A DNA stretch of 64,000 nucleotides, from positions 1-64,000 of the IMG/VR virus record IMGVR_UViG_3300019360_000002; one strand, 5' to 3'. The notes below the pieces were generated by a model. The model saw nothing but the letters and a program-made list of their open reading frames with translations, did not search any database and was not told where the DNA came from. Shown one piece after another: positions 1,973-62,752 of the stretch. How positions within the stretch are numbered: the stretch's first letter is position 1; the number at the start of each line of letters is the position of its first letter. A program made the position numbers and the translations under genes. This DNA comes from a virus.

Positions 1973-2564
1973 GATTGCCTCCAGTGGTGCGCCCTGGCAT
2001 GAGCACGAGACGGCGACGGGCGCAGTGGTGGCACTGTCTCGTGGGCGGGCTGTATGTGCTGGCCCCGTCCCGCCTAGCGGGGCCAGCAGGCGGGCGGTAG
2101 CCCTGCCTATGTCGTGGCCCCCGGCACCATGCCAGGGGTCTTGCGAATCGCAACCGGCCAGCGACGGCCGATCGCCTGCCAGACGCGATAGGCTCGCGCC
2201 TGGCAGGCGATCGGCGCGATCGGCGCCGAATCCCGGCACGCCGCGATCGGCTCGCCAGACGCGAGCCTATCGCAGCCCTGCCCGGCAACGCGAGACGCGC
2301 CACGCGCGCCAGCCGGGGGGCCGAGGCGATTGACGCGGTGCGTTGCCGGAAGGGGAGCCATCCAACCCCGGGTTACGCAAGACTCGTGCCGGGGAAAAAT
2401 CCCAATGATTTCGCGGGGGTGTCCGGGGAAAAGCGCTACTTTTTGCGGGGTTTGGCTGTGGATAAGCTGTGAAGGCCGGGGACAAAACCAAGGGGTTCCG
2501 GGCGCTTACGGCGACTCTGCAAGAATTGCGAGCCACAATTCCGGTACGCAATTTTTGCAGAGCG

Positions 2565-2668
2565 GCCTGGTGCGCCTGGTGCCGGCTCCAGGCTATACTG
2601 AACGCCTGTGCATGTAGGCGATTCGGCCGGGTGCCTGGTGCGCCTGGTGCCGGATCGGCCTGGTGCCG
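2565..2668. repeat. GCCTGGTGC direct-repeat cluster in a divergent intergenic region
   Basis: GCCTGGTGCGCCTGGTGCCGG at 2565-2585 and 2633-2653, plus GGCCTGGTGCCG at 2657-2668. Confidence 0.6.
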
Positions 2669-2936
2669 TGCGCCCGGTGCTGTGGGATCGCGCGTGCTGG
2701 CCAGCCGCGCGCCTCGCGCACCAGGGATCGCACGTGATCGCTGTGCGCGCAGTCCGGGGCATGACCAGGAGCCCGGCAGGTTTCACCCCTTTCTGAAACC
2801 TCAGAAGCTTCAAAACTTTCTGTACGTTTTGAGCTTGCTGATTGTTCGGAGCGGACTTACCCTGCCAGCCACACCGTCGAATCACTGTCGAACACAAGGC
2901 GAACACGAAGCGAATTCACCAGGGGAGGTGATCACC

Positions 2937-3563
2937 GTGCCGAAGCTCATCGAAGACGACGACAAGGAAGAGAACCTGAGCAACTTCGACGACTTCGAGC
3001 CCGGCAAGCTGCCGCCCGAGGTGACGGCGCCGCCGTCGATGGACGGCAAGGTGCCACGGCTTCCGCTCGCGCCCGCGATCCCGCTTCCGCCAGCGGTGCC
3101 CGAGCACTTCGTCTGCCTCCGTGGCCCGTGCAAGCACTATCTGGAGATTCGGAGCCCGGCCGAGCTAGAGAACCGAGGCGTCGGCTACCTGCCCGAGCAG
3201 ATAAGCCGCTACTGCCGGGCGATCTCAGGCGCCGTTCTCGCGCTCGATGACGATGCCGTGTTCGGGTGCTCCGAGTGGGATCCGAGGACCGAGGACTACA
3301 CGCTCAAGCAGCGCCGCGAACAGTACATGAAGGCGAATCCGGCATGCAGCACCGCCGATGCCGAGCGCATCCGCACCCGCGAAGAGGTCATTGCGAAGCG
3401 CAACGCCGAGGCCGACGCCCGCGAGGCCGAGCAGCGCGCCGCCATCGCGGCAGCCGAAGCCAAGGCCAAGACCGACGCGGCGGACCCCGTGGTTCAGGCC
3501 GCCGCAGTCGACGAGTGGGCCGCACCGGACACCAACACTACAAAGGAGAACGGCAATGCCTGA
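2937..3563 (+). CDS. Hypothetical protein (Cys-containing central domain, helical C-terminus)
   Basis: GGAGGTG RBS and GTG start (VPKLIEDDD); CLRGPCKHY...YC...GCSEW. Confidence 0.7.
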   Translation: MPKLIEDDDKEENLSNFDDFEPGKLPPEVTAPPSMDGKVPRLPLAPAIPLPPAVPEHFVCLRGPCKHYLEIRSPAELENRGVGYLPEQISRYCRAISGAVLALDDDAVFGCSEWDPRTEDYTLKQRREQYMKANPACSTADAERIRTREEVIAKRNAEADAREAEQRAAIAAAEAKAKTDAADPVVQAAAVDEWAAPDTNTTKENGNA

Positions 3564-4143
3564 CCTGGAAATGACGTACGACGATCTGGTCAAGGAGATC
3601 GAGAAGGCCGCCAAGCGAACGGGCAAGGCCACCTTCATCGAAGCCAAGACCGAGTTCTCTCAGGAGACCTACCCCATCCTGTCGGCGGTGGTCGAGTTCT
3701 TCGGCGATCGTCTGGAGCGGAACGAGCGCGCCATCGCCGAGATCATCGACCAGACCGAGAGCTTCATCCAGCCCGAGCTGGCCGATCAGATCCACGGTCT
3801 CATCGACGTGGGCCGACAGCTAGCCGCCATGGTGGTCAAGCTCCGGGTGGGCAACCTCGATGGCCGGACACTCAAGGTCCTCCAGCAGGCCGCCGCTGCG
3901 TTCATGACTGCCGCCAACATGACCGAGGAGTCGGTCGCGAACGTCACGGTCGAAGTGCAGCCCGAGGAGCCCGAAGGCGAGGAGGGGGACGAAGGCGAGG
4001 AGCCCGAAGGCGACGAGGAGGGTGAGGAGGAGCCCGTCGAGGCCAAGGGCGACGGCATGATCGAGGTTCCGCTGCCGGACGCTCCGCCCAAGCCCGAGGA
4101 GCCCGCCGCACCCGCTGCGCCGCCGGCCGAGGGCGGCCAGTGA
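3556..4143 (+). CDS. Hypothetical helical protein with acidic tail
   Basis: AAGGAG RBS before MPDLEM; E/D/P-rich C-terminus. Confidence 0.75.
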   Translation: MPDLEMTYDDLVKEIEKAAKRTGKATFIEAKTEFSQETYPILSAVVEFFGDRLERNERAIAEIIDQTESFIQPELADQIHGLIDVGRQLAAMVVKLRVGNLDGRTLKVLQQAAAAFMTAANMTEESVANVTVEVQPEEPEGEEGDEGEEPEGDEEGEEEPVEAKGDGMIEVPLPDAPPKPEEPAAPAAPPAEGGQ

Positions 4144-5783
4144 GCCCGCCCGTGGAAGGGGCGAGCGAGCTGGACGAGGGGATGGACGACACGCCTCCTC
4201 CGCCGCAGCAGAAGCGCAAGCAACCGCAGCAGCAAGCGCCGCGCGAAGAGGTGTCGAGCACCGCCGAGGCGATGTCCCAGCAGGACGAGCGGTCGGTGTA
4301 CGAGTTTCTCACCGACCTGGGCACCGGGGCCAACCTCAAGATCAAGCTCATCCGCGTGTCGCCGAGCACGTGGCTTGGGCACAACATCAAGGGGCACCTC
4401 GACGAGTTCGACGCGCCGTTCACCGAGAAGGAGGTGTTCAACCGCTTCGGTGGCGGCAAGTACATGATCCGTACCTGGAAGCCGGGCGCACGCGGCAACC
4501 TCGTCTACTCCGGCACCAAGACCTTCGAGGTTGCCGGCGACCCGAAGGTGACTGGCGAGCTGACCCACGACGACGGCAAGGACACGCCGGTCACACCCCT
4601 CGAAGGTCCGGCAACGGTCCGTGCCATGGGCATGATGGAGCGCCAGGCCGAAGAGGAGCGCAAGCGCGCCGAGCGGTTCGAGAACGAAGCAAGGCAGAAC
4701 CGAAACGCCGGCCCGGACATGAACATGATCAACGCCGCGCTCACCCCGCTGCGTGACCAGATCAAGGCGATGAATGACCAGCTCATCGCCAACCAGAAGA
4801 TCATCTCGGACAAGGACGCGAAGATCCTGGAGCTTGTGACTCGCAAGCCGGAGTCCACGTTTCAGGACAAGCTCCTCGACAAGATGGTCGACGGCGAGAG
4901 CGCCCGCATCGAGTCCTTGCGCGAGAACCACGCCAGCGAGCTGCGCCAGCTCCGCGAGACGAACGCAAGCGACCTGAAGTCTGCTCGCGAGCACGCCCAG
5001 GACGAGCTGCGCCAGCGCGAGACCGTCCACACGCGCGAGATCGAGAACCTGAACCGGTCAATCGCCTCGACCACGGACGCGCTCAAGCTGTCGTACGAGG
5101 GGCGCATCGACGCGTTCAAGAGTCGTATCTCCGACCTGGAGCAAAGACTCACCCAGCAGGGCGCCGAGCTGGGTTCACTGCGCGACAAGAAGGACAAGGG
5201 CCTCATCGAGCAGATGGAGGAGATGGCGACGGTCAAGAACGCCATGGAAGCCCTCGGCATGGCCGGCGGACAAGAGCAAGGATCGGTCCTCGAACGCATC
5301 GCCATGGGCGTGCTCGACAGCCCGATCCTGAAGGCGGTCGCTACCCGTGTCGAACAGGCTCCGACCGCGCCTCCGCCCCCGCAGCGGCGCCGTCGAGCCC
5401 CGCCCCGCGAGCAGCAGCAGACCGTGAACGTGCCGCAGCAGCCGCCGGCTGAAGGAGCGCCACCGGCCGAAGGCCAACCGGGTCAGCCGGTCGGGCAGAT
5501 GGTTCCGGCCAAGAAGACCATCAAGATCAACCCAGCGGACGTGAAGATCGCCGTGAACCTGCTCGAAGGCGCCTTCAAGAACGGCACCGATCCCACGGTG
5601 TTCGCCGAGTCGGCGCGCAGCATGGTGCCCGGCGACATCCTGGGCGTGGTCAAGCAGATCGGGGTGGACGCGTTCCTAAAGGACGTGGCCCAGCTCGATA
5701 GCTCAAGTCCCCTCGCCACCATGGGCGGCAGGAATTTCCTGCGCAAGGTGGTCAAGTACCTCACCGAAGGCGTGACCGAGTAG
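4140..5783 (+). CDS. Large coiled-coil protein (possible assembly factor)
   Basis: 547 aa, GTGA-coupled start, long E/R/K/L/Q heptad region; no Walker A motif seen. Confidence 0.7.
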   Translation: MSPPVEGASELDEGMDDTPPPPQQKRKQPQQQAPREEVSSTAEAMSQQDERSVYEFLTDLGTGANLKIKLIRVSPSTWLGHNIKGHLDEFDAPFTEKEVFNRFGGGKYMIRTWKPGARGNLVYSGTKTFEVAGDPKVTGELTHDDGKDTPVTPLEGPATVRAMGMMERQAEEERKRAERFENEARQNRNAGPDMNMINAALTPLRDQIKAMNDQLIANQKIISDKDAKILELVTRKPESTFQDKLLDKMVDGESARIESLRENHASELRQLRETNASDLKSAREHAQDELRQRETVHTREIENLNRSIASTTDALKLSYEGRIDAFKSRISDLEQRLTQQGAELGSLRDKKDKGLIEQMEEMATVKNAMEALGMAGGQEQGSVLERIAMGVLDSPILKAVATRVEQAPTAPPPPQRRRRAPPREQQQTVNVPQQPPAEGAPPAEGQPGQPVGQMVPAKKTIKINPADVKIAVNLLEGAFKNGTDPTVFAESARSMVPGDILGVVKQIGVDAFLKDVAQLDSSSPLATMGGRNFLRKVVKYLTEGVTE

Positions 5784-5808: not shown

Positions 5809-6195
5809 ATGATCGACGGCTTCCGTATCGAGATGACGACCAGCGACCTCCAGAAGCACTGCATCGCCAAGTCCGAGGAGCACACCAAGCTCGCGGGCGA
5901 GTGCGAGACCCAGATCGCCAAGCGTGTCGAGGCCCGCAAGCAGGGCACCGAAGAAGGTGACCACGTCTACCACCGTATGTTCGAGTGGGACGACATCACC
6001 AAGCTGGGCATGCCGGAGCTGAAGACGCTCCAGACCATGCACAAGGAGCGCGCCAAGTACCTGGCGTTCGTCGCCGCCCATCTGCCGGCGAACGAGGTGC
6101 ACCGCCTGGGTCGCGAGGACCAGTTCGAGCTGGAGATGATCGGCACCTTCGTGCAGCGACTCACCGCGTGCGGCGGACGGCCGGAGGTGTTCTGA
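5809..6195 (+). CDS. Hypothetical protein
   Basis: AAGGAG RBS, 128 aa. Confidence 0.65.
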   Translation: MIDGFRIEMTTSDLQKHCIAKSEEHTKLAGECETQIAKRVEARKQGTEEGDHVYHRMFEWDDITKLGMPELKTLQTMHKERAKYLAFVAAHLPANEVHRLGREDQFELEMIGTFVQRLTACGGRPEVF

Positions 6196-6485
6196 TGGGC
6201 GACACAAGGAAGGATGCACAGCTCGGACCGTTCACCGACAAGTCGGTGACCAAGTTCGAGTTCTCACCGATCACGGTCACCGTCACCAAGGCGCGTGACG
6301 CAAGCCACGTTCCACCGGACGACGACTGCGGGTGCGGCAAGGAGGCAACGCTCGACAGCAGCATGATGGAGGCCGTCAAGCGGATGGGCGCGATCATCAT
6401 CGAGCACCTCCAGAAGATCCGCGCGCACCAGGAGAGCACGGCCTACGTGGACCCGCCGCCCCCGGCCGATCCGTCGCACTCGTAG
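6195..6485 (+). CDS. Hypothetical protein
   Basis: TGATG-coupled start MGDTRKD. Confidence 0.55.
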   Translation: MGDTRKDAQLGPFTDKSVTKFEFSPITVTVTKARDASHVPPDDDCGCGKEATLDSSMMEAVKRMGAIIIEHLQKIRAHQESTAYVDPPPPADPSHS

Positions 6486-6582
6486 CCACTTGCGCATCGC
6501 AAGACCCATCTGATACACTCCTTTAGTCTACCTCTCCGGTAGAAGCCGCCTGGTTCTGCGTAGCGTTGACGACAGCCGAATT

Positions 6583-8086: not shown

Positions 8087-9046
8087 ATGGCTCGTCTTCG
8101 GCCCTCACATCCGTGGAACCCCGGCTACTCGATCCCCAAGAACGTGCTCGACGAGCCGTATGGCCAGGGTGTGATCGTCACCAAGCAGGCCAAGCGTGGC
8201 ACCATCTCGGCGCTCCAGCCCGAGTGGCTCGTCGACGGTGCCGGCGCCCCACCGCCCGCCGCACCGCTCGGCTCGCTCGGGTGTGCCCACGGCAACGGGT
8301 CACTCGGCGGGGCGACGATCAAGGGCAACTCGCTCCGCTCCGGCTCACTCGGCAGCTTGTCGGGCACATCGCTCGGCGCCAAGGGCGCAAACGGCGTAGA
8401 GGTCGGCGGCATGTCCGATCCCATCGCCAATTTCGGTCGCCAGGGTGCCGCGCTCATCATGAGCGAGGTGAAGTACCTGAAGGAGTCGGATCGCGTGGCG
8501 GCGATGCGCCACATCCTCGACTCCATCGACCCGCAACTCTTCGACATGGTGGCCAAGCGCGCCGAGGCGCTCGGCAAAAGCGGCGTCGTTCCGCGCGTCG
8601 CGATGGAGCGGGCACTCGCCGCCTCGCTCGCGGGCCGCTACCTGGAGCAGCTCGTGAAGATGGGCAAGACCGGTGCACCGCCCACCTTCGGCGTTCTCGG
8701 TCTCGGCCTCGGCACCGTCGACCCGGAGGGCCTGGGCGGCTTTTTCGCCGACGTGTGGGGCGGCATCAAAAAGGGCGCTGGCGCGGTCGGCTCAGCTGCC
8801 AAGACCGTCGGCAAGGGCATCGGCAAGCTCGCCTGCAAGGCGGCCGGCAACCCCGGCACATCTATCGCGGCAGGTGCGGCCGGCGGACCAGCGGGCGCGA
8901 CCGGTGCCCAGCTCGCCTCCGAGCTGTGTGGTGGCGGCACCCAGTCCGGTGGCGGCTACGTTCCGCCTCCGGCGGCACCGTTTCCCATCATGCCGGTTCT
9001 CCTCATCGGCGGCGGGCTGCTCGCCGTACTTGCGCTTCGCAAGTAA
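8087..9046 (+). CDS. Gly-rich virion membrane protein with C-terminal TM and basic tail
   Basis: AAGGAG RBS; repeated GSLG; ends PVLLIGGGLLAVLALRK. Confidence 0.7.
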   Translation: MARLRPSHPWNPGYSIPKNVLDEPYGQGVIVTKQAKRGTISALQPEWLVDGAGAPPPAAPLGSLGCAHGNGSLGGATIKGNSLRSGSLGSLSGTSLGAKGANGVEVGGMSDPIANFGRQGAALIMSEVKYLKESDRVAAMRHILDSIDPQLFDMVAKRAEALGKSGVVPRVAMERALAASLAGRYLEQLVKMGKTGAPPTFGVLGLGLGTVDPEGLGGFFADVWGGIKKGAGAVGSAAKTVGKGIGKLACKAAGNPGTSIAAGAAGGPAGATGAQLASELCGGGTQSGGGYVPPPAAPFPIMPVLLIGGGLLAVLALRK

Positions 9047-11087: not shown

Positions 11088-11201
11088 ATGAAGGTCGAGA
11101 ATGATATTTGGTGGACAGAGCCCGGGGGTTTCATCCCAGAGGCGTTTGTCGTTCCTCTGCTCGGCCTGATTGTCGTACTGTGGTGGGGGGGACGCAGGTG
11201 A
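11088..11201 (+). CDS. 37-aa membrane peptide (not in the ORF track)
   Basis: MKVENDIWWTEPGGFIPEAFVVPLLGLIVVLWWGGRR; GTGA-coupled to the next gene. Confidence 0.55.
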   Translation: MKVENDIWWTEPGGFIPEAFVVPLLGLIVVLWWGGRR

Positions 11202-11515
11202 TCTACTCCGTCTACAGGCCCGAGACCGGCGTCTACGACTACTACGAGACGCCGGAGCAGACCGCCAAGAACCCTGACCCTCAGTTCCTCACGGGTCGCG
11301 GCGCCACGGCAGCGCTTGGCCTCTCATCTACCGATGCCGGCTGGCAGCTCCCCGGTAACGCCCGCAAGGTCGGCGAGGGCAAGCAAGCGCGCGGCATGAT
11401 TGCGACCCGCAACGGCGGTAGCCTGGGCGGCTTCGAGGTCCCCGGCGGTGGGTTCGGCGTGGCCGCGATCCTGGGCGGTCTGTGGTGGCTTTTCGGCGGA
11501 AGGAAGCGGCGATGA
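11198..11515 (+). CDS. Tail-anchored membrane protein
   Basis: GTG start VIYSVY; GSLGG; ends AAILGGLWWLFGGRKRR. Confidence 0.65.
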   Translation: MIYSVYRPETGVYDYYETPEQTAKNPDPQFLTGRGATAALGLSSTDAGWQLPGNARKVGEGKQARGMIATRNGGSLGGFEVPGGGFGVAAILGGLWWLFGGRKRR

Positions 11516-14104: not shown

Positions 14105-14243
14105 TGCAGACATACTGATTGACCTTCTTGTCTGACCTTCCTGTTTGAATCTTGCGAAGCACAACTTCAAACGGTCGGGAAGACACCCGCCCTGAGTCAC
14201 CCCAAATAGGGGGACCGAAGTTAAAACAGAAAGGAAGGTCACT

Positions 14244-47229: not shown

Positions 47230-47231
47230 GT

Positions 47232-48486: not shown

Positions 48487-48526
48487 TTTCGTCCTCCCTT
48501 GCGAGTCGCAAGTTGTTATTTCGGTG

Positions 48527-50137: not shown

Positions 50138-50487
50138 CGCCTCTTCCTTCCGTTGTCGGGCTTGAGCGCTCTAATCTCGAACTTGGATAGCCGCCCGGTG
50201 GGTGGTCTCGGGCCAACGAACACCGAGCCTTTGCCGTCGCAGCCCGTGCACTTTGTCCCGCGACTGTACCCGCGTCCAGCACAACCGTGGCACTTGTGCC
50301 AGCCCCGCTTCTTCGCCTTGGGCGGGTCGACTGGCCTTGCCACCACCCGGCCAGGGTCTACCTTGGGCTTACGCCCACGCCGCTTCTCTGCGATCTCGTG
50401 GACGAGATGCACGCCCGCGATGTCGCAGCGATCGTCTCGACAGATGGCAGCTAGGTCGCTCAAGGAGTCGGGCTTCTTCGTGGTCAC
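50134..50487 (-). CDS. Protein with DnaJ-like CxxCxGxG zinc motifs
   Basis: CHGCAGRG...CTGCDGKG. Confidence 0.55.
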   Translation of the reverse strand: MTTKKPDSLSDLAAICRDDRCDIAGVHLVHEIAEKRRGRKPKVDPGRVVARPVDPPKAKKRGWHKCHGCAGRGYSRGTKCTGCDGKGSVFVGPRPPTGRLSKFEIRALKPDNGRKRR

Positions 50488-51068
50488 TGTTCGTCGTCAG
50501 TGAGTTCGAGCTTCATGACGAAACGGCGAAGGAGGTACCGACAGACGTAGTCGACCGGCGACTTGGCCATCCGAATGCCGGGCGTGTTGGTCCGCCCCGA
50601 CGGCTCGAAGCTCGTACCGATGAGGCGCCTGCACAGGTCTTCGAGCGGGTGGCCGAGCTGGAGCAGGATTGAAGAGGCGATGGCCCACTGGTCGGCGAAG
50701 CCCGAGGCGACCGAGCCTTGTTTTGCGAGGCGCAAGAAGAACTCGCCCACTTCGCCGTTTGGATAGAAGCTCACCGTCACGTAGCCGTCCTCGTCGCCTT
50801 CAGCCGAGTGGATGGTGAACTTGTGGGTGAGTGACTGGCGTTCGGCCGGTAGTTTGACGCGGCGCGGCAAAGAGGTTGCGGCCGACAGGTCGGCGAGCTT
50901 GACCCCCAGCTCGTCCCTGGCGGCCACAGCCGCCTTCAGATGGGCCTGGGAGCGCGCCAGGTCGCTCGTGAGCTGCCCGACCTGGGTGGTTGCTTGTTCC
51001 AGCTCGGCCCGGGTTTCGGCGAGCTGGGCTCGGCAGGTGTCTAGGTGAGTGGTCGTGAACTTGGGCAC
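50484..51068 (-). CDS. Coiled coil fused to a TSCPD (NrdJ C-terminal/NrdJb-like) domain
   Basis: KLP.ER.S.THKF...GY.TV..Y..G..GE.F...K.GS...S..LQ.G.PL...FEPSG...AKSPVDY. Confidence 0.75.
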   Translation of the reverse strand: MPKFTTTHLDTCRAQLAETRAELEQATTQVGQLTSDLARSQAHLKAAVAARDELGVKLADLSAATSLPRRVKLPAERQSLTHKFTIHSAEGDEDGYVTVSFYPNGEVGEFFLRLAKQGSVASGFADQWAIASSILLQLGHPLEDLCRRLIGTSFEPSGRTNTPGIRMAKSPVDYVCRYLLRRFVMKLELTDDEQ

Positions 51069-51099
51069 GGCGAAACAGTGCCAAATGCGGGTGGGGCGG

Positions 51100-51650
51100 T
51101 CAACAAATATTTGTTGTAAAAGGATTTATTTTTTAGAGAGGTCGCAACCCTACACACGACAGAGGCAACGCTACACCAATTGTAATGGCGCCTAGAGTTT
51201 TGACCGTTTTTTGATGAAAACATTTGAATTTCTCAAGTGGTCATACCACTAATTGATCAGGCGCCAAATGCGTCCGATCAATTAGTGGTCAGACCACTAA
51301 CTTAAATAGCGACAAAAGTCGGTTTCTCTAGCCGACATTACAATTGGTGCCGGGTTGTCTGGTTTTTGCGCGGGGTTGACGCCCGCCGTTTTGCCCAGGT
51401 GTTTCGCCTGTTTAAGTCCGTGCGTAGGGTTTTGGGGTGTTTTTAACTATATGCGAGAAATATGCGTTAATTGGAAAACGACGGAAATTGATCGGCTACC
51501 CGAAATTAGCGTTTTTTGGGGGTATTTCATTTCTCGCGCGCCTTGAATTAAAGTGAAATATTTGTATGAGTTTAGAAGGCCCCTTAACCCTGCACAGCGA
51601 TTACCTTACCTGGCAAAAAATCGAATTTCTTGACCTCTGACTACAGCATG
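51100..51650. other. AT-rich non-coding region with nested inverted repeats; putative replication origin and divergent promoters
   Basis: 14-bp IRs at 51174-51187/51336-51349 and 51245-51258/51276-51289; perfect palindrome at 51101-51116; directly upstream of the primase-helicase. Confidence 0.6.
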
Positions 51651-51724
51651 GCGTAGATCATCAGCCCTCGGGTAGTTTGACCATCAGACGACCTCTGGCG
51701 TGGGGGTCGCGAAAGGGAGCGGGG

Positions 51725-54508: not shown

Positions 54509-54568
54509 AAAATTTTTGTTGACAATGCTGCTTGGCATACGGCTAAATAACCCACTGCGTGTGAGATA

Positions 54569-56101
54569 ATGGCGATTCTTAAAACGTCGGCTTCGCAGGT
54601 CGAAGCTTTCATCCGCTGCAACCGTTATTGGTACAACAAAAGCGTGTTGAAGTTGCCAGAGCCTTTTTCGCCGGCCGCCGCCAAGGGCTCGCGCGTGCAC
54701 AGCATAAGCGAATACTGGTTAAAGTCCGGCCTTCTCTCACAACCGCCAGGCGCTACTGACGAGGACACGGAGATCGCGCAGGCAGCTATTGCCACCATGC
54801 CCGCGCGTGGGCCGGAGCTGCTTATCGAACACGAGTTCGAGATTCCGACGTACGAAGGTGGCCCAATGTGGCTAGGCTACATCGACCTTGTTGATCCTCG
54901 TGGCGATCTGGTTCACGTGCTTGACCACAAGACGCGTAGTGATTTTCGCTACTGCCTTAAGCCCGAAGACCTTTTGAAATCGATTCAAATGATTTCATAC
55001 GCCAAGTGGGCAATGGATTATTTCGTTAAAGAGGCGGTGTTGATTGGCCACAAATACGTGTGCACCAAACGAACTGCCAAACCGCCTTACTACAAAACGA
55101 TGCTTGTGACAGCGGTTGCGAATCGCAAACAGGTGGACAAGGTGTGGGCGAATCTCATGCCGGTCATTCGTGAAATGATGGCTTGGCGTGAGAGAAACCC
55201 CAAGACCGCAGACGATCTTTCGCCCAATACGGCAGCGTGTGGCATGTACGGAGGGTGCGCGTACAGGCCGCAGTGTGGATTCTCACCGGCACTCGGCACG
55301 TTCTCCATTCGAAAGACGAAGACCATGAGCGACACGCCCACTGCGCCCGTGAATGGAACCACCCCGCGTCCGATGTCCCTCTCCGAGAAGCTCGCCGCCA
55401 AGAAGGCGGCAGCCGCCGCAGCCGCGCCGCCGGCTACCACGGCCCCGGCCGCAGGAGCGCCCGCTGTCGGCCTCGTGCCGCCGGACGCGCCGCCCAACCT
55501 GCCGGCAGGCCAGCCGCCCGAGGACGCCAAGCCCGAGGAGAAGAAGACCAAGGCGAAGAAGGGCTCGGCCGCGCGTGACGCGATTTTGGCGGCGGCCGGC
55601 GGCGAGCCCGAGAGCGGGACCCTGCCGGGCGTGTCGACGACGCCGCCTCCGGCGAAGCCGGATCTGGGGCGTGTGGCCGAGGAGAGCACGGCCTCGCAGT
55701 TCAAGGGAGTGAAGGAGGAGGCAGAGCGCAAGGCGCTCGTCGCCGAGAACGCCGCCGCGCCTGGCGCCGAGACGGCTCCGTCCGCCCCCGTCAAGGCCGT
55801 CGCGACCAAGAAGCGCCTCTCCATTTTTGTCGATTGCCTACCTGTGAAAGGAGGCGGCAGCTTCACCTTGTTCGAGGACTGGGCCGCGCCGCTCTTCGCC
55901 CACGTGGCCGAGGGCCTCGGCCTCTCCGACTACCGCCTGGCGCAGTTCGCCTCGTGGAAGCCTCACTTCGCCAACGCCGTGCGCGAGAGCCTAGACACGC
56001 TGCCGGAGGTGCTGGTGATGTCGAGCTACGGCCCCGGCGTGCAGGAGGCCCTCGACGCGCTCACGCCCCACGCCACCTTGATCGTCAAGAAGCTGGGGTA
56101 G
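54569..56101 (+). CDS. PD-(D/E)XK (RecB/Cas4-like) exonuclease with C-terminal extension
   Basis: SASQ...C.R.W; G..VH; GYIDL; LDHKT; Q...Y; C..YGGC.Y...C. Confidence 0.85.
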   Translation: MAILKTSASQVEAFIRCNRYWYNKSVLKLPEPFSPAAAKGSRVHSISEYWLKSGLLSQPPGATDEDTEIAQAAIATMPARGPELLIEHEFEIPTYEGGPMWLGYIDLVDPRGDLVHVLDHKTRSDFRYCLKPEDLLKSIQMISYAKWAMDYFVKEAVLIGHKYVCTKRTAKPPYYKTMLVTAVANRKQVDKVWANLMPVIREMMAWRERNPKTADDLSPNTAACGMYGGCAYRPQCGFSPALGTFSIRKTKTMSDTPTAPVNGTTPRPMSLSEKLAAKKAAAAAAAPPATTAPAAGAPAVGLVPPDAPPNLPAGQPPEDAKPEEKKTKAKKGSAARDAILAAAGGEPESGTLPGVSTTPPPAKPDLGRVAEESTASQFKGVKEEAERKALVAENAAAPGAETAPSAPVKAVATKKRLSIFVDCLPVKGGGSFTLFEDWAAPLFAHVAEGLGLSDYRLAQFASWKPHFANAVRESLDTLPEVLVMSSYGPGVQEALDALTPHATLIVKKLG

Positions 56102-56104
56102 GTC

Positions 56105-56821
56105 GTGTTGAAGATCGTAAAGCGCGGGCTAGCGGTCATCTGCGAGTTGCTTCAGATTGGGGTGTTCCTCATTCTGTTACCGATCGACTATGCTGGTATC
56201 AAGCTTCGTCGTGTAGCTGCCCGGCTTACGCGACACCCGTACTACTGGTTGGTTCAGTCCAAGCGCTTGCTCCGTGGGGAGCCGACTTGGCAGGAACACG
56301 ATTGGAAGATCGGCATTCCACCGCCAGGGTGGAAGCCGGTGCCGTGTGATATTCGCGAGTTCGCACAAAAGGCCAGGGGCGAGGTAGTCGAGGAGAAGGA
56401 GGAGAAAATGGACGCGTCGGATAATCCGATGAAGCCTCGCTTCTGCGCCAATTGCGGCGAGATCGTGTCGTGGAACTACCCGTCGGGCGACGAGACGTGT
56501 GCCGAGGTCGCGTGCCAGCACTGCGGCGCCGGCTACGACATCTGCTTCGACGGGTGCAGTGTGCGAGCAGGCCGACAGCGGGACGAGAAGGACGCCAAGC
56601 TAGGTCGCGAGCTGGTGGCGCTCCTCTCCGAGGTCGTCGGCGACAGCGGTGTGTCGGAGGGAGCTGTCGATTGCCTGAAGCGGCAAATTGCGGATCGCAA
56701 GGCGTTCGCTTTGGCACTCAGGGAAGTAGATCAATTCATGTTCGCCGCATGCATGCTCTGCCATCGCAAGCACGCTCAGGATTGTCCGTTTCACAGAGCA
56801 ATGGCGATCTACATCCGGTAA
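56105..56821 (+). CDS. Hypothetical protein with Zn ribbon
   Basis: CANCG...CQHCG. Confidence 0.45.
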   Translation: MLKIVKRGLAVICELLQIGVFLILLPIDYAGIKLRRVAARLTRHPYYWLVQSKRLLRGEPTWQEHDWKIGIPPPGWKPVPCDIREFAQKARGEVVEEKEEKMDASDNPMKPRFCANCGEIVSWNYPSGDETCAEVACQHCGAGYDICFDGCSVRAGRQRDEKDAKLGRELVALLSEVVGDSGVSEGAVDCLKRQIADRKAFALALREVDQFMFAACMLCHRKHAQDCPFHRAMAIYIR

Positions 56822-58659
56822 TGCCCACGCTGTCTGAAAAGCTGATGGCCAAGTTCGGCCTGCCGCACCCACGGTCGAGCGCCGGATTGGCACTTGCGCA
56901 GGGTGGTGTATGTCTTTCGCCTGAGCTGGCGCGCATCCTGGCGCTGCCCAGGCGACCGGCGGAAGGCTCTGCGCCTGATCTCACCGAGCTTTACTCAAGG
57001 GGTGTGGCGAACTGCGGCGTCGCACACTGCCGAGTGTGCGTGGCCGGCGAGCCAAGGCTTCGGCCCATCCAGTCCCAGATGCTCTGGGAGGGCGACCGTC
57101 GGCAAGGGCTCCTCGGCATGGCCAAGATCGGCTCGGGTAAGACGCTCGCCTCCCTGCTCATGCATGACGCGATGAACGCCACCCGCACCGTGCTGCTCGT
57201 CAAGTCGAGTCTGCGTGATCAGCTCATTAACATCGACATCCCAGCCTACGGCCGCCACTTCAAGCTGCCCCCGGTTTGGTCCGCCAAGAACACCAGAAAC
57301 TACGAGCGCTCGGGCGTGTACGTGCTCTTCTATCACGAACTGTCGGATTCGCACAAAGGCCATTGGCTTGAGCGCATTGCGCCCGACCTAGTGGTTGCTG
57401 ACGAGGCGCAGGTTTTCCGTAACGTGCATTCGGCTCGGTCCAAAAAGTTCTACCGCTACATGGACGAGCACCCGGAGTGTCGGTATTGTCCGCTATCCGG
57501 GTCGATTGCCAAGCGGTCAATCCGCGATGTAGGACCGCCGAGCGAACTTGCGCTTCGCAAGGACAGCCCGCTGCCCAAGGGACGGGCGCTCTTCGAGTGG
57601 TCGTGTGCGCTCGATCGCGACGTGGAAAAGCCACTTGGCCCCGGCAAGCTCATGCTGTTTTGCGGCCCCGGCGAGGACCATCACGACGGTTTCCGTCGGA
57701 GACTTCGCGAGACCGAAGGTGTGGTGGCGTCGGAGAAAGACACTATCGACACGGCGCTTGAGGTCTTGCCGCATAGTCCACCGCTCTCGCCGGTCATTAG
57801 CGCCGCCTTGGCTGAGCTGGCCAGGCTGTGGCGCTGGAACGAAGACGAGATTTCCGACGCGCTCCACTATGCGCGTCTCGCCAAGCAGATCGCCCAGGGC
57901 TTCTACCTCAAGTGGGATTGGCCCGGCGGTGTGCTCGATGAGGAATGGCTCACAGCGCGGTCAGCCTGGCACAAGGAGGTGCGCGAGTACCTTCGCTACC
58001 ACTCAGTTCCAGGAATGGACTCCACGCTCCAGCTCGCCAATGCCGCACGCCACGGGCACTGGCTGTCTGAGGCGTGGCCCGCCTGGAATGTGGTCAAGGA
58101 CCGACCCGAGCCGCCCACCGAGGCAGTGTGGCTAGACACCGCGTACATGCCGGGTGTGGTGGCCAACCTCGTCGAGGAACTGAACGCGTCCGACGAACCG
58201 CTCGGGAAAAAGAACGCTTCGGGCGCGACGCGAGGTCTCATTATATGGTATGAAAACATATCAATGGGCGACCTCTTGGAGAAGACGTACCCGAGATTCG
58301 GTCCAGGCGATCGAGCGGCTGCGCAATTGGCAAAGATGCACCCGAAGGACCACCCGGTCATTGTGTGCTCTCGGGCATCGCACGGTGAGGGGAAGAACCT
58401 TCAGGACTACACCGATGCGTTCTTCATCACGCCGCCGGCCAACTCCCTTGATTGGAATCAGACAGTCGGTCGTGAGCTGAGGCCCGGCCAACTGGCAGAT
58501 ACGGTACGGGTGAAATGGCTGGCGAACACCATCGACCTTCAGAAGGCGTTCGTGAACGCGGTCAAGAACGCCGAGACCTTGCAGAAAAACACGGGTGAGG
58601 AGCAAGTGCTCCTGATCGCCGACGGAGCGGCCCTAGCAGAGACGGCGAAGGCCGCGTGA
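56821..58659 (+). CDS. Superfamily 2 (SNF2-like) helicase
   Basis: LRPIQ, GSGKT, ADEAQ, LSGS, GEGKNLQ, QTVGRELRPGQ. Confidence 0.85.
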   Translation: MPTLSEKLMAKFGLPHPRSSAGLALAQGGVCLSPELARILALPRRPAEGSAPDLTELYSRGVANCGVAHCRVCVAGEPRLRPIQSQMLWEGDRRQGLLGMAKIGSGKTLASLLMHDAMNATRTVLLVKSSLRDQLINIDIPAYGRHFKLPPVWSAKNTRNYERSGVYVLFYHELSDSHKGHWLERIAPDLVVADEAQVFRNVHSARSKKFYRYMDEHPECRYCPLSGSIAKRSIRDVGPPSELALRKDSPLPKGRALFEWSCALDRDVEKPLGPGKLMLFCGPGEDHHDGFRRRLRETEGVVASEKDTIDTALEVLPHSPPLSPVISAALAELARLWRWNEDEISDALHYARLAKQIAQGFYLKWDWPGGVLDEEWLTARSAWHKEVREYLRYHSVPGMDSTLQLANAARHGHWLSEAWPAWNVVKDRPEPPTEAVWLDTAYMPGVVANLVEELNASDEPLGKKNASGATRGLIIWYENISMGDLLEKTYPRFGPGDRAAAQLAKMHPKDHPVIVCSRASHGEGKNLQDYTDAFFITPPANSLDWNQTVGRELRPGQLADTVRVKWLANTIDLQKAFVNAVKNAETLQKNTGEEQVLLIADGAALAETAKAA

Positions 58660-58732
58660 GGATGGCTGTACGTGGCGGCACAAGCCGCTGCGATTTGCGG
58701 CTCGCAAGAGCCGATAGATGGAGAGGTGACCG

Positions 58733-59221
58733 ATGGGGAGATTTTCTGGTATCAAGGATGCGAAGTGGAATCCGGGCGGTGTGTACTTTGAGCCGGGACA
58801 GTTCTTGGTTCGGGTGGACACGGTGAAGGTGATCGAGAGCCGCAAGAAGGAGGAGATGTTCATCGTCGAGAACACCCTGCTCGACAGCGATCATCCCAAG
58901 CTCAAGCGCGGGTCGTCGGTGTCCTGGGTGGTGCTCAGCTCTTGGGACACGTACCTTGGATCGATCAAGCACTTCGTCTCCGTCGCTCAGGAGATCGAGA
59001 TGGATGATGTCGACGAGTCCGGCATCGAGATGGTGGTGTCCGAGGACAACCCGTGTTCGGGTACCATCCTCAAGGTCGAGGCCAAAAACGTCCGAAAAAA
59101 GGACGGCGGCGACTTCACCAAGTGCGTGTGGTCGTGGCCCGAGCCCGAGGACTTCGCCAAGATCGGGCTCAAGCCCGACGGCACCAAGCTCGACAAGCCG
59201 GTCGAGCAGAAGACGGCGTAG
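58733..59221 (+). CDS. Putative single-stranded DNA-binding (OB-fold) protein
   Basis: Lies between helicase and polymerase; YFEPG.F.V.V..VK pattern. Confidence 0.5.
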   Translation: MGRFSGIKDAKWNPGGVYFEPGQFLVRVDTVKVIESRKKEEMFIVENTLLDSDHPKLKRGSSVSWVVLSSWDTYLGSIKHFVSVAQEIEMDDVDESGIEMVVSEDNPCSGTILKVEAKNVRKKDGGDFTKCVWSWPEPEDFAKIGLKPDGTKLDKPVEQKTA

Positions 59222-59327
59222 CAAGTTCTGGTCATCGGCGGGGGCGGTGTCCGGGGAATGAGCCCTTCGTGCACCGCCCCCGTCGGCGGCCTTCTACCGT
59301 TTTGACTCGCAATTCTGGAGGGCGCGG

Positions 59328-61388
59328 ATGTACGACCTTGTTCCGGTTCAACCCGAAGAGCCGTACCTCTGTGCGTTCGACACCGAGACCTTCCTCATCC
59401 GGCAGGGTCTCCTAATCCCCAAGCTCGTATGTCTCAGCTACGACGACGGGAAAGCCTCTCTACTCTACGCACGTGAGGATGGTCTTGACTGGCTAGAAGA
59501 GCGTCTGCGCGATCCGAACACCGTCTTGACCACGCACAACGGCCCGTTCGACCTCGCGGTGTGTGTGGCTCGAAGGCCGCGCCTTTTGCCACTCGTGTTC
59601 GACGCCTACCAGACCGGTCGCATTCGCGACACGCGCATCAGGCAGAAGCTCATCGACATCGCGAACGGCGAGCACAAGTTTCACTTCGACCAGCGCAAGG
59701 CCGATGCCGGCGAGCCTGGCCGGCAGAAGTCCAGATACGGCCTCGACAACCTCGTGTGGCGTCACCACGGCGTGGTCTTGGATAAGGCCAACACCTTCCG
59801 CCTGCGCTTCGCCGAGCTGGACGGCGTGCCGGTCTCGGAGTACCCCGAGGCCGCCAAAGTCTACGCGATGGACGACTCCCGGTGGACGCGCCTTGTGCAC
59901 GTCTCCCAGGACAAGGCGATGGAGTACGACGCGGCTGAGACCGTGCCGTTTTTCCCCAACGAGCTACCGCAGACGTGCGCCGCCTGGGCGCTCCATCTGA
60001 TGAGCGCCTGGGGGCTGAGGACCAACAAAGAAGCCGCTTACAAGCTCCGGGACAAGTATAAGGGCCTCGTCGACGCTGCTTGGAAGAAGCTCAAGGTGTG
60101 GGGGATGGTGCGTGGCGACGGCACCAAGAACATGGCTGCCATCCGCGAGGCCATCGCTCAGTGCTACACGTCGCGCGGTGTCCAAGTCCCACTCACGGCC
60201 GGTGGGGACGGCTCGACCGACGCCGACACCCTCGCCGAGATCGTCATGCACGAAGACGAATTCGAGGCGCTGGAGAAGAGTGACTTGCCGCTTCCAGAGT
60301 GGCCGCCCGAGGCGCGCGTCACCGTGCTCGACAACGTAGGTGAGGCCGAGCACGCCTTGACCGCGTTCGTGCCCATCGTCTTGGCCGGTGTCGACTCGCC
60401 CATCAACCCGGGCTTCAACGCGCTCGTCGAGACCGGTCGAACCTCGTGCGAGAAGCCCAATCTACATAACCCGCCTCGCAAGGGCGGAGTCAGGGAGACA
60501 TTCGAAGCCAGGCCGGGCTTCGCCTATGTGGGTGCGGACTACTCGACGCTAGAGCTTCGTACGCTGGCTCAGTGCTGCTTAGAAATCGTGGGCCAGAGCG
60601 AAATGGCCGAGGCCATCAAGCGCGGTGAGGATCTGCACGCGTCCTTCGGCGCCGAACTCATGGGTTTGTCCTACGAGGAGTTCGATAGGTTGATCAAGGA
60701 CGGAGACAAGGCTGCCGAGGACATGCGCCAGCTCTCCAAACCCGCCAACTTCGGCTTCCCCGGGGGCATGGGGGGAACCGCGTTTGCGGCGTATGCACGC
60801 GGTTACGGTGTGAACATCGACACCAAGCGCGGCAAGGAGCTTCAGAAGGACTGGCTCAAGAAGTGGCCGGAGATGCCGCCTTACTTCCGCCACATCACTG
60901 CTATTACGTCGCGTGGAGAAGGGACGGTTATTCAGCTTCTATCTGAGCGCGTGCGTGGCGGACTGAGCTACACGAAAGCGGCCAACACCTACTTTCAGGG
61001 CCGCGCCGCCGACCTCGCCAAGGACGCGCTCTGCCACGTGACGCGCGAGTGCCACCTCGGGGTCAAGCCCGACGGCACACCGAGCCCATTGGCTGGCTGT
61101 CGTCCGGTAATCTTCCTTCATGACGAGATCATCCTGGAGGCCCCGTACGACAAGGCGCGGCCCGAACTCGCCTCCGGCGCTGCCAAGCGCTTGAAGGAAG
61201 TCATGGAGGAACGCGGCAACTACTGGTGCCCAGATGTGCCCATCGAGGCTGGCGCCGTCATGATGAAAAATTGGTGGAAGGGAACCAAAGCGGTGTACGA
61301 CGACAAGGGCAACATGTTGCCGTCGCGTCCTGAGAAGGTAAAAGGATCAGACGGCAAGGAGAAAACCAAGTGGGTTGCCGTCAATTAG
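59328..61388 (+). CDS. polA: Family A DNA polymerase with 3'-5' exonuclease
   Basis: Exo motifs FDTET, HNGPFD, YAMDD; TGRTS...PNLHN; motif A ADYSTLELR; motif B RQLSKPANFG; motif C LHDEI. Confidence 0.92.
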   Translation: MYDLVPVQPEEPYLCAFDTETFLIRQGLLIPKLVCLSYDDGKASLLYAREDGLDWLEERLRDPNTVLTTHNGPFDLAVCVARRPRLLPLVFDAYQTGRIRDTRIRQKLIDIANGEHKFHFDQRKADAGEPGRQKSRYGLDNLVWRHHGVVLDKANTFRLRFAELDGVPVSEYPEAAKVYAMDDSRWTRLVHVSQDKAMEYDAAETVPFFPNELPQTCAAWALHLMSAWGLRTNKEAAYKLRDKYKGLVDAAWKKLKVWGMVRGDGTKNMAAIREAIAQCYTSRGVQVPLTAGGDGSTDADTLAEIVMHEDEFEALEKSDLPLPEWPPEARVTVLDNVGEAEHALTAFVPIVLAGVDSPINPGFNALVETGRTSCEKPNLHNPPRKGGVRETFEARPGFAYVGADYSTLELRTLAQCCLEIVGQSEMAEAIKRGEDLHASFGAELMGLSYEEFDRLIKDGDKAAEDMRQLSKPANFGFPGGMGGTAFAAYARGYGVNIDTKRGKELQKDWLKKWPEMPPYFRHITAITSRGEGTVIQLLSERVRGGLSYTKAANTYFQGRAADLAKDALCHVTRECHLGVKPDGTPSPLAGCRPVIFLHDEIILEAPYDKARPELASGAAKRLKEVMEERGNYWCPDVPIEAGAVMMKNWWKGTKAVYDDKGNMLPSRPEKVKGSDGKEKTKWVAVN

Positions 61389-61505
61389 GCACGTTATTGC
61401 GATTCGCACATCAAGTTGTTCCGGTGCTGAATTAGCGGCCCGTTACAGAGTCAGCCGCGCCGTAATCAGTAGCGTTTTACTTCGTAAAACCTGGAAGCAC
61501 GTGCC

Positions 61506-62054
61506 TTAGTTCACGTGCTTGTCGGACAGCCGATCCATCGACCGCTCCGGGCTTGCGCTTCGCAATTTATGACGGTGCAGGTACCATAGCCCGATGCCGA
61601 TGGCGTCGAAGATGTTCTCGTTCTGCTTGGCGCTCTGCACCAGCATCACGTTGTCCATCTCCCTCGGCTTCAGATCCGCCAGGCAGCGGTTCTTGGTCAC
61701 GATCTTCTTGACCTGGCCCTTCCACTCGGCGGGCAGGATGAACAGCTTTTCCTTCACCGGAGCCAAGGAGGCGTAGCGCTCCATGATGGCCCCGGCCACC
61801 GCCGCCACCGCGATGAGGTCGTTCGGGTCGCCTTTGGACTTGTCGACGCCGTACACCTGCGGTAGTTCTATGACCACGGCCGCGTACTCGTAGCCGCCTA
61901 TGAACGCCGCGCAAGAAACATCGACCACCGACTGGGCCAAGTTCTTCTCGGTGTTCTTGACGAGATGGGCGCGACGCAGGTAGTAGCGGTTCTGGTGGTG
62001 GTCCCACACCGCTACCCCCGTGAACCGCACGCCCGGGTCGATGGTGACGATCAC
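61506..62054 (-). CDS. RuvC-like Holliday junction resolvase
   Basis: IDPG...GVAV; VVIE; P.EWKG...K; DAIGIG. Confidence 0.75.
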   Translation of the reverse strand: MIVTIDPGVRFTGVAVWDHHQNRYYLRRAHLVKNTEKNLAQSVVDVSCAAFIGGYEYAAVVIELPQVYGVDKSKGDPNDLIAVAAVAGAIMERYASLAPVKEKLFILPAEWKGQVKKIVTKNRCLADLKPREMDNVMLVQSAKQNENIFDAIGIGLWYLHRHKLRSASPERSMDRLSDKHVN

Positions 62055-62281: not shown

Positions 62282-62282
62282 G

Positions 62283-62513
62283 TCACGCCGCCGTCTTCCA
62301 CGGCTTGATCTTCTTCTTCACCACCTTCCAGTCCGGCCACGACTGAAGGGAAACCTTGCCGTCGGTCCATACCTCGATCACCGCCGCCAGGTGCAGGCTC
62401 GGGGTGCAGCTCTTGGCCACGAGCATGTGAACGTACGCCTTGGTCTTGCCGAGAGCCTTGGCGGCGGTCTCGGCGTCGATCTCGTTTTCTTTGAGGAAAC
62501 CCTCGAAGTCCAT
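62283..62513 (-). CDS. Cro/XRE-like HTH transcriptional regulator
   Basis: AAKALGKTKAYVHML.....PSLHLA..IE..TDGKV. Confidence 0.75.
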   Translation of the reverse strand: MDFEGFLKENEIDAETAAKALGKTKAYVHMLVAKSCTPSLHLAAVIEVWTDGKVSLQSWPDWKVVKKKIKPWKTAA

Positions 62514-62518
62514 GCTTA

Positions 62519-62547
62519 TGAGGTAAACAATTTTTTGTTGCTTGTCA
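62519..62547 (-). promoter_or_regulatory. Promoter of the HTH gene with operator in the spacer
   Basis: Minus strand TTGACA-17-TACCTC; AAACAATTTTTTGTTG at 62525-62540. Confidence 0.6.
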
Positions 62548-62752
62548 AATAAGTCGAACCCCGAAAAAGGCGACCCCCGCGCCTTGGATCAGAAGGCCGG
62601 GGGTCTTGAGCGCGATGGCCGGGTTAGGCGTGTGGAGGACGACTTCCGGGAGGCGCTAGGAAAAGAGTAGCAAGTGCCCAGGGTTTGGTCAATGCGAAAG
62701 CGGACTTGCGAAGCACAAGTGGAAGCCTTTAGACTACGAGCCGGAGGGACCC

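Follow-up and report, generated by a model that had tools for sequence, protein, structure and literature searches.

An evenly spaced 13-bp palindrome along a viral genome and an orphan ParB-family protein as its predicted reader

Introduction

The genome of the virus recorded in IMG/VR as IMGVR_UViG_3300019360_000002 carries, at rather regular intervals, a palindrome of 13 base pairs (bp), TTGCGNNNCGCAA, which consists of two five-base arms and three intervening bases (TTGCG-N3-CGCAA). The virus record comprises 83,535 bp with a G+C content of 63%, and its bases 1-64000, from which the motif was first described, are called here the window. The reading favoured in this report, with a probability of roughly 0.6, is that these palindromes are predicted loading or operator sites of a ParB-type protein of the virus itself, P0001, in an arrangement like that of the plasmid protein KorB and its operators (OB). 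It is a clean case, with one candidate reader, strong selection for the site, conserved positions, and an unrelated phage that shares only the ParB and the core word. The element is a variant of a published kind and not a new category.

Abundance and spacing of the palindrome

In the window, the perfect palindrome is found 24 times, while dinucleotide shuffles contain it 0.12 times on average and once at most; none of 100 shuffles reached 24. The original prediction, which was made from the sequence of the window alone, had placed all 24 of these sites correctly, and its expectation of about 0.1 agrees with the shuffled mean. At up to one mismatch, 46 sites are present against 3.99 expected; the 16 one-mismatch copies listed earlier were all recovered, together with six further ones (945, 2539, 7884, 13045, 36885, and 52349). 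The degenerate form with a pyrimidine and a purine at the paired positions, TTGYGNNNCRCAA, occurs 32 times in the window (0.36 expected), these being the 24 perfect sites and eight single C-to-T variants, with no double variant. Over the whole record the perfect sites number 31 and the pattern read backwards occurs once; at up to one mismatch the total is 59, and chance alone would account for about 4-5 of the one-mismatch sites.

This abundance is restricted to one spacer length and to one word. Across the record, a spacer of three bases gives the 31 sites and every other spacer from N0 to N12 gives between 0 and 2, while the runner-up among 5-N3-5 palindromes has three copies. Markov simulations yield means of 0.13 (order 2) and 0.2 (order 4) for the 31 seen. 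None of the null models suggested with the prediction (Markov models, codon-preserving shuffles, and other spacer lengths) reproduces the count. The spacer was said to be fixed at three bases and free in sequence; its length is indeed fixed, with enrichment at N3 only, but its sequence is not fully free, for in 62 half-sites the first base is never T and the last never A. At the first spacer base A is preferred, and the base preceding the site is by preference C or A. The single C-to-T variants lie in either half of the palindrome, independently of the direction of local transcription. Since no double compensatory variant is found and no rival 5-N3-5 palindrome exceeds three copies, the signal is the sequence and not a structure, that is, a sequence on duplex DNA that a symmetric binder would read.

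The recurrence of the sites along the genome, already noticed in the prediction, proves more even than chance. The gaps between the 31 perfect sites average 2,691 bp and have a coefficient of variation (CV) of 0.69, where random placement gives 0.96 (P 0.019). The shortest gap, 618 bp, is a minimum that random placement rarely attains (P 0.0004). With one mismatch allowed, the 59 sites, about one per 1.4 kb, have a CV of 0.63 (P 0.0002).

Selection on the DNA

Genes were predicted with a rough model of our own, a codon-usage scorer combined with dynamic programming and not a standard caller, which gave 126 genes and a coding fraction of 84% for the record. According to this model, 19 of the 31 perfect sites lie within coding sequences (CDS), nine are intergenic, and three extend across a start codon. 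When synonymous codons were shuffled within genes, the sites in CDS averaged 0.78 over 300 shuffles and never numbered more than 4. The 19 observed ones are read in frame 1 (13 sites) or frame 0 (six sites), never in frame 2, and each of the codons that they need (TTG, CTT, ATT, GTT, and GCA) accounts for 9-12% of its amino acid. The earlier statements that sites in genes use disfavoured codons, stand in more than one frame, and reflect selection on the DNA rather than on the protein are therefore all borne out.

The proteins themselves bear the imprint of the site. Pentapeptides of the form [ILVF]AxR[KN] occur 16 times in the predicted proteome, against 3.0 ± 1.7 and at most 8 in 300 sets of residue-shuffled proteins, and 13 of the 16 are written with the motif where codon usage would predict 0.31. 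Because the pentapeptide is over-represented, it seems that protein sequences have been altered to accommodate the site. Selection acts strongly on the DNA itself.

Non-coding DNA makes up about 16% of the genome, yet it holds or adjoins 12 of the 31 perfect sites. Nine of these 12 sites outside CDS are located at most about 25 nucleotides (nt) upstream of a start codon or across one, often straight after the previous stop; such placement may simply mark where coding constraint is lowest.

The orphan ParB-family protein P0001

P0001 has 328 amino acids (aa) and is encoded at 75006-75992 on the minus strand, about 11 kb past the end of the window. A six-frame search of the record with Pfam ParB_N gave a single weak match, at 75789-75929 within this gene. 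The similarity is clearer with other profiles: against PHROG families annotated as ParB-like partition protein the best E value is 3.2e-18 (residues 23-318), and residues about 132-184 match the Pfam KorB domain (E 2.6e-4, 21.3 bits, with a cut-off of 22.3). When a profile of 14 P0001 homologs was compared with solved structures, Noc (7ol9) was the best match (E 1.9e-16), followed by Spo0J (1vz0, 1.1e-14), KorB (8qa8, 3.9e-5), and other ParBs. In the alignment to Noc and Spo0J, which covers residues 23-214, the stretch GaRRkaA pairs with GERRwrA and aDNiQReeLs with iENLQREeLs, and the helix-turn-helix (HTH) is aligned as well. Residues invariant in the 14 homologs are R25, G65, R67, R68, A71, and N109 in the N-terminal domain and S144, W147, V148, S149, and R150 in the HTH stretch. 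P0001 hence shows both features of the ParB-CTPase family (ParB, Noc, and KorB), namely an N-terminal ParB domain with arginine-rich stretches and an HTH domain behind it.

No ParA was detected in six frames of the whole record with Pfam AAA_31 and CbiA, and the ParA-binding motif, as described in PMC12704722, is present in the first 60 residues of none of 160 members of the P0001 family. From these two observations P0001 is classed, on its predicted features, as an orphan ParB-family protein, and the genome does not show the set of components that defines a ParABS partition system. The N-terminus of P0001 is acidic and, by inspection, has no membrane-targeting helix.

The ParB gene is itself accompanied by sites. 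The perfect site at 76010 follows the stop of the upstream gene and precedes the GGAGG and the start codon (ATG) of the ParB gene, and a variant site at 76373 (TTGCA) lies upstream of the 102-aa gene that precedes it, whose product has no informative Pfam or PHROG match.

Relatives that share the protein and the motif

A profile search of 1.84 billion representatives returned 153 relatives of P0001 at E <= 1e-30, and a KSETWVSR-like stretch is found in 43 of the 160 family proteins. No relative was detected in 185,579 species genomes of GTDB, and hence none as a prophage. Scans of IMG/VR with P0001 alone or with the sub-family alignment A3 were empty, and tblastn of P0001 against phage records gave only three distant matches.

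Five metagenome loci (JGI/ENA) encode ParB relatives that are 48-72% identical to P0001 and are dense in the same motif; their 23,257 non-redundant bases contain seven perfect sites where 0.01 would be expected. For this count L009 and the part of L008 beyond it were taken, as L008, L009, and L010 are near-identical, and L013 (1,993 bases, a match of 56 residues, no site) was excluded. Four positions of the present genome (78094, 76373, 76010, and 74210) are shared with L009, L011, or L012 by pairwise alignment. The site at 78094, upstream of a 357-aa gene, and the TTGCA variant at 76373 are both present in L009 and L011. For the site at 76010, ahead of the ParB gene, L012 has an aligned counterpart, and in L009 a variant site with the same surroundings is found 13 bp off. 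At the in-gene site 74210, all 13 bp are identical in L009 and the flanks differ. Other sites are specific to a lineage, such as 10316 in L009, where this genome has a sequence with two mismatches, and 5676 in L011, which has no counterpart. The motif is thus conserved in relatives, being enriched in them and standing partly at the same positions.

A more distant case came from an IMG/VR scan with the alignment of 14 ParB sequences, which returned one locus (L007) on G001, a fragment of 58,096 bp from an otherwise unrelated phage with a G+C content of 0.52 (against 0.63 here) and a ParB of 29% identity. Compared with the 126 predicted proteins of the present genome, G001 matches only the ParB (E 2.7e-20), apart from one marginal match, and its ParB has the same KSETWVSR stretch as P0001. 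G001 contains ten copies of TTTGC-N5-GCAAA (0.10 expected), nine of them with longer arms, and this palindrome includes the same core, TTGCR-N3-YGCAA, in the same register as the motif described here. Six of the ten copies stand outside any open reading frame (ORF) of at least 80 aa. The longer form in G001 (L014-L016) is a 25-bp palindrome of the type AAAAGTTTGC-N5-GCAAACTTTT with 9 to 10 copies, several of them paired 0.5-2.8 kb apart; its ends are T-rich, so that it might double as a terminator in both directions.

The co-occurrence of ParB and palindrome in the relatives, at the protein's own gene, and in G001 is the best evidence that the ParB may read the site, and it is comparative, not direct.

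Positions of the sites and promoter-like sequences

The perfect sites and the single C-to-T variants of the window are located as follows; the sites themselves have no strand, and the strand of the gene concerned is given in brackets.

2141-2153, perfect site, in the low-coding left-end region
2526-2538, C-to-T variant, directly abutting a second one-mismatch site at 2539-2551
3391-3403, perfect site, in CDS 2937-3563 (+), frame 1
4834-4846, C-to-T variant, in CDS 4140-5783 (+)
6490-6502, perfect site, 4 nt past the stop of 6195-6485
9030-9042, perfect site, at the 3' end of CDS 8087-9046, with the next start (9057) 14 nt on
11400-11412, perfect site, in CDS 11198-11515 (+), frame 1
14152-14164, C-to-T variant, intergenic
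16364-16376, perfect site, 13 nt past the stop at 16350
18179-18191, perfect site, its final base being the A of the ATG at 18191
21603-21615, C-to-T variant, in CDS 20834-23281 (+)
26457-26469, C-to-T variant, abutting the stop at 26456, with the start at 26491 21 nt on
27868-27880, perfect site, its spacer containing the ATG of gene 27873-28163; a promoter-like match (9/12) at 27833-27861 ends 7 nt upstream
29082-29094, perfect site, in CDS 28524-29114 (+), frame 0
30148-30160, C-to-T variant, in CDS 29892-30560 (+)
31187-31199, perfect site, abutting the stop at 31186 and followed by GGGGAGG and an ATG at 31217
34051-34063, perfect site, in CDS 33954-34700 (+), frame 1
37983-37995, perfect site, in the tyrosine recombinase gene 37934-38896 (+)
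38601-38613, perfect site, the second one in the same recombinase gene (+)
41147-41159, perfect site, 2 nt past a stop and 13 nt ahead of the start at 41173, overlapping the last base of a promoter-like match (9/12) at 41118-41147
44544-44556, perfect site, in CDS 43898-44626 (-), frame 1
46371-46383, perfect site, in CDS 46352-46999 (-), frame 1
48499-48511, perfect site, between two genes (-), with GGGAGGA and an ATG at 48486 coming next in the minus-strand direction
49521-49533, C-to-T variant, upstream of gene 49015-49497 (-)
50723-50735, perfect site, in CDS 50484-51068 (-), frame 0
53834-53846, perfect site, in the primase-like gene 51725-54508 (+), frame 0
55116-55128, perfect site, in the exonuclease-like gene 54569-56101 (+), frame 1
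56688-56700, perfect site, in CDS 56105-56821 (+), frame 1
57548-57560, perfect site, in CDS 57079-58659 (+), frame 1
58695-58707, perfect site, intergenic, with the start at 58733 25 nt on
61553-61565, perfect site, in the RuvC-like gene 61506-62054 (-), frame 0
62706-62718, C-to-T variant, in the divergent intergenic region 62513-62753, 34 nt ahead of the start at 62753

In the low-coding left end of 2.9 kb, the two adjoining one-mismatch sites at 2526-2551 form a gapless tandem pair, an arrangement that occurs nowhere else in the genome.

A scan of the whole record for promoters of the sigma-70 type (9 of 12 consensus positions) gave 15 promoter-like matches, six of which are intergenic. 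Three of these six stand within 25 nt of a site: 27833-27861 at the site 27868, 41118-41147 at 41147, and 44686-44715 near 44738. In addition, the site 78094 fits exactly between a -35-like and a -10-like hexamer that are 17 nt apart, and the site 76373 could itself be a -35 box, in both cases by eye and with 8 of 12 positions only; the two arrangements are conserved in L009 and L011. A minority of the sites may therefore be classical operators. The idea that a half of the site generally serves as a -35 box was dropped, since by eye only 6490 and 62706 have TAnnnT at 16-18 nt, which by our own arithmetic is about the chance level for 59 sites.

The proposed reading

A dimer of P0001 is proposed as the binder of the TTGCGAnTCGCAA duplex. 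If P0001 behaves like KorB on RK2 and like Noc, each site would be a specific loading point, at which P0001 bound to cytidine triphosphate (CTP) would close as a clamp and slide onto the neighbouring DNA. With an even spacing of one site per 2.7 kb (perfect) or per 1.4 kb (up to one mismatch), the whole chromosome would come within reach. At the minority of sites that overlap promoter-like sequence, including one before the ParB operon, P0001 would act as a direct repressor and as its own regulator. That P0001 reads the sites is suggested by the comparison of sequences, and its use of CTP and its sliding are predicted from conserved motifs only. Such coverage might serve gene silencing or timing, compaction, or protection; control in the manner of KorB together with loading over the whole genome is favoured, and compaction, protection, or a packaging role are possible.

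The original prediction of a dimeric protein that acts along the whole genome, as parS, matS, or NBS sites imply, receives comparative support in the enrichment, the 3-bp spacer, the lack of compensatory stems, and the conservation in relatives. The binders that it suggested (the products at 12477 and 4140, the HTH protein at 62283, the primase, and the recombinase) give way to P0001, encoded outside the window, as the most likely reader.

Several observations weigh against this reading. The Pfam scores of P0001 are below the curated cut-offs (16.2 against 26.3 bits for ParB_N and 21.3 against 22.3 for the KorB domain). Most proteins of the genome have no family assignment, so other readers are possible; one of them, the 76-aa product of 62283-62513 (-), adjoins the variant site 62706 and is given no family by Pfam. 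Most sites are far from any recognisable promoter, and around the ParB operon the sigma-70-type scan found none. Directly upstream of the ParB gene of L011 there is no site with at most one mismatch. The sequence of G001 is a fragment with an estimated completeness of 27%, so that more shared genes could lie in the remainder. Finally, Microcystis phage yong2 encodes a longer and distantly similar ParB-like protein (28% identity over 55% of P0001) and shows no enriched palindrome among half-lengths of 5-7 and spacers of 0-9, which implies that an orphan phage ParB is not always accompanied by such a lattice. The ParB-like gene of yong2 adjoins a gene annotated as DNA gyrase inhibitor; a pentapeptide-repeat protein is encoded near the ParB operon of the present genome (L006 14187-15173, genome 78184-79173, minus strand, Pfam E 1.4e-64).

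Comparison with known systems

The closest parallel is KorB of the IncP plasmid RK2, a ParB-family protein with an HTH whose 13-bp palindromic operator OB is dispersed over the replicon (PMC13768133; PMC11790492). The roughly 60 kb of RK2 contain 12 OB operators, some of them at promoters, some at a distance from promoters, and some within operons, and their sequence and position are conserved in the distant relative R751 (PMC13768133). KorB loads at these operators and slides as a CTP-dependent clamp (PMC13768133). The present genome likewise has dispersed 13-bp palindromes, 31 of them perfect, and conservation in sequence and position among relatives, with 78094, 76373, 76010, and 74210 as the shared positions. 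It differs in its word, which in OB is TTTAGC-G/C-GCTAAA (PMC13768133), in a density two to four times higher, and in having most sites within genes. Besides, no ParA/IncC was found and no KorA- or TrbA-like partner was identified, no KorA search having been made; the replicon is a virus with 123-bp terminal repeats and not a plasmid, and P0001 is by sequence nearer to Noc and Spo0J than to KorB.

Among phages, the Cluster O mycobacteriophages offer the nearest counterpart, with more than 30 copies of a 17-bp dyad repeat (7-3-7, TGTTCGG-N3-CCGAACA) in a genome of 70 kb (PMC4351075; Ryadel note PMC6439249). In Corndog, 14 of the 34 dyad repeats are in short intergenic regions just upstream of genes and the rest are in genes, and the positions are mostly conserved among five genomes, with single-base losses (PMC4351075). 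Its authors expected a dimer to bind the repeats and considered a role in promoter regulation unlikely; they noted the ParB-like gp90 without a ParA and did not assign the repeats to it (PMC4351075). In Corndog 48000-62000 (L017) we count ten perfect Cluster O repeats in 14 kb around gp90. One repeat stands 26 nt upstream of the gene pair 91-90, which ends in gp90, and another 26 nt upstream of gene 89. The gp90 protein passes Pfam ParB_N, and its alignment with the P0001 profile spans ParB_N and the beginning of the HTH, a remote relation with an hhalign probability of 85%. The two systems have in common an inverted repeat with a 3-bp spacer, more than 30 copies, about 40% of them intergenic, and mostly conserved positions; they differ in the word (7-3-7) and in the A/T-rich spacer of the Cluster O repeat (PMC4351075), and Corndog is an ordinary tailed phage with a terminase. 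With no nucleotide similarity and a remote ParB relation, the present virus is not a member of the Corndog group. Sites of the Cluster A stoperator type, which are oriented and asymmetric and are contrasted with the dyad repeats in PMC4351075, were rejected as a model, the site here being palindromic with variants on either half whatever the gene direction.

Noc of Bacillus subtilis is a further relative in kind, an orphan ParB (PMC12704722). It is a paralog without the ParA-binding motif, and its palindrome is scattered over the whole chromosome; it differs as a cellular protein in division-site control. The N-terminus of Noc is membrane-targeting. VirB, BisD, and HerB/YfjB are ParB-fold proteins on mobile elements that work in gene control or host reprogramming and not in segregation, but they use one or few sites (HerB has no consensus site), and none is reported to tile its own replicon. 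A survey of 2025 describes orphan ParB-fold proteins as common on phages and plasmids, with roles that are mostly unexplored (PMC12704722).

In the light of these systems, the earlier claim that no named element has this pattern holds in part. The exact word TTGCG-N3-CGCAA was not found in the searchable papers, and neither was a description of a ParB-read lattice on a phage genome, but elements of the same kind have been published, namely the Cluster O repeats (PMC4351075) and the KorB operators (PMC13768133). The Cluster O repeats have been without an assigned reader or function since 2015 (PMC4351075), and the present genome would link them to orphan ParBs. If this link is true, whole-replicon control of the KorB type would extend from plasmids to viruses, the combination of an orphan ParB with an evenly spaced palindrome would be a genomic signature for such systems, and experiments could then address what the lattice is for, be it silencing or timing, compaction, protection from host defences, or packaging.

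Alternative explanations

The competing explanation that survives best, unlikely as we consider it, is that the sites are operators of a different dimeric regulator of the virus, a genome-wide repressor that would be the product of 62283-62513 (-) or a small unassigned protein. Dimeric regulators typically read short palindromes, dispersed repressor sites have been published for other phages, several of the present sites are at or beside promoter-like matches, and the variant site 62706 falls in the divergent intergenic region beside the gene in question. Moreover, the authors of the Cluster O study named three candidate DNA-binding proteins and did not single out the ParB-like one (PMC4351075). 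The product of 62283-62513 (-), however, is given no family by Pfam, tblastn finds no match to it in G001, where the same core palindrome is nonetheless present, and a six-frame HTH_3 search of the genome was empty. In addition, of the 31 perfect sites 19 fall within genes and the majority are remote from promoter-like sequence, and even spacing is not what a promoter regulon would be expected to show.

A second possibility, to which we give rather little credence, keeps the ParB and changes its purpose. ParB at about 60 even sites would coat the chromosome and condense it into one nucleoprotein body, a form that would be marked as self and delivered into the particle, and the lattice would then be a distributed condensation or packaging signal and not a means of regulation. 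Such a role is of interest because no terminase or FtsK-type ATPase was found and almost every virion gene is an orphan. A six-frame search of the whole record with Pfam Terminase_6N, TerL_ATPase, and FtsK_SpoIIIE detected no packaging ATPase, which for these three families agrees with what had been noticed in the window. The large plus-strand ORFs at 4140-27858 are almost without PHROG or Pfam matches, and the virion module of this virus is very unusual.

It is improbable that a host protein, be it a regulator or a nucleoid-associated protein, reads the sites and that the virus uses them as decoys or for recruitment. The virus encodes a fitting reader of its own, whose HTH stretch is invariant in the relatives that keep the motif; both the ParB and the core palindrome recur in the unrelated phage G001, whose G+C content is different (0.52, against 0.63 in the present genome); and the 185,579 species genomes contain no relative of the ParB.

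A hairpin on a single strand is very improbable, whether as an RNA stem-loop that acts in processing, stability, or translation or as a DNA hairpin at which priming or nicking takes place. The nine perfect sites (of 31) that are at most about 25 nt upstream of a start codon or across one, often right behind the previous stop, would suit such a role. The RNA fold of the 13-mer, however, has just -3.0 kcal/mol, a T-rich tail is present at two of the 31 sites and complementary flanking bases at 11, no compensatory variants exist, the C-to-T variants are on either strand whatever the direction of transcription, and 19 sites are within genes. An intrinsic terminator or structured RNA hairpin was rejected on the same folding energy, the same scarcity of T-rich tails, and the lack of compensatory variants.

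Least probable of all is a restriction-modification or methylation target: bipartite palindromes with a fixed spacer do resemble some restriction sites, but such targets are normally depleted in phage genomes and this one is about 150-fold enriched, its even spacing and the bent protein sequences would be left unexplained, and no methyltransferase was found among the roughly 70 proteins scanned, no dedicated search having been run. Recombinase sites (a spacer of 3 bp only, and 31 copies) and a pac or cos signal (too many copies, none of them in the 123-bp terminal repeat) were rejected on reasoning.

Gene layout and neighbouring features

The ends of the record form an exact direct terminal repeat of 123 bp. 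From our own gene model, supplemented by family matches for the replication genes, the genome is laid out as follows.

2937-43901, plus strand, block of genes
43898-51068, minus strand, block of genes
51725-61388, plus strand, replication genes (primase-like, exonuclease, family A polymerase)
around 62.5 kb, divergent, small control-like region
83.5 kb down to 65.1 kb, minus strand, long block of genes

Relationships outside the ParB loci are scarce. Megablast of 20 kb of the record against 50,697 phage records gave no match, IMG/VR scans with a 547-aa protein of this genome gave no relative, and no sequencing run, of DNA or RNA, is listed as carrying the polymerase gene. The divergent non-coding region of 657 bp at 51068-51725, with the minus-strand block on one side and the primase gene on the other, has no palindrome site at up to one mismatch and could hold an origin or early promoters. 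Neither is there a palindrome site inside the 531-aa ORF at L006 7657-9252 (genome 71657-73252, minus strand).

Near the ParB operon, the 357-aa gene that the conserved site 78094 precedes (L006 12982-14052, genome 76979-78052, minus strand) has the strongest codon bias of the genome, with a G+C content at third codon positions (GC3) of 0.94; the sole match of its product is PHROG 1362, whose function is not annotated. A short direct repeat of about 21 bp at L006 about 2535-2580 (genome about 66,535-66,580) flanks the site 66521, just upstream of a PcfJ-like gene. A set of genes for nucleotide metabolism consists, in this order, of a dCTP deaminase-like gene (31501-32052, plus strand), the thymidylate synthase gene ThyX (47232-48140, minus strand), and a NUDIX hydrolase gene (48527-49015, minus strand), and could point to altered nucleotide pools or base modification. 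The tyrosine recombinase encoded at 37934-38896 (+), whose coding sequence contains two of the perfect sites, has an N-terminal SAM-like domain.

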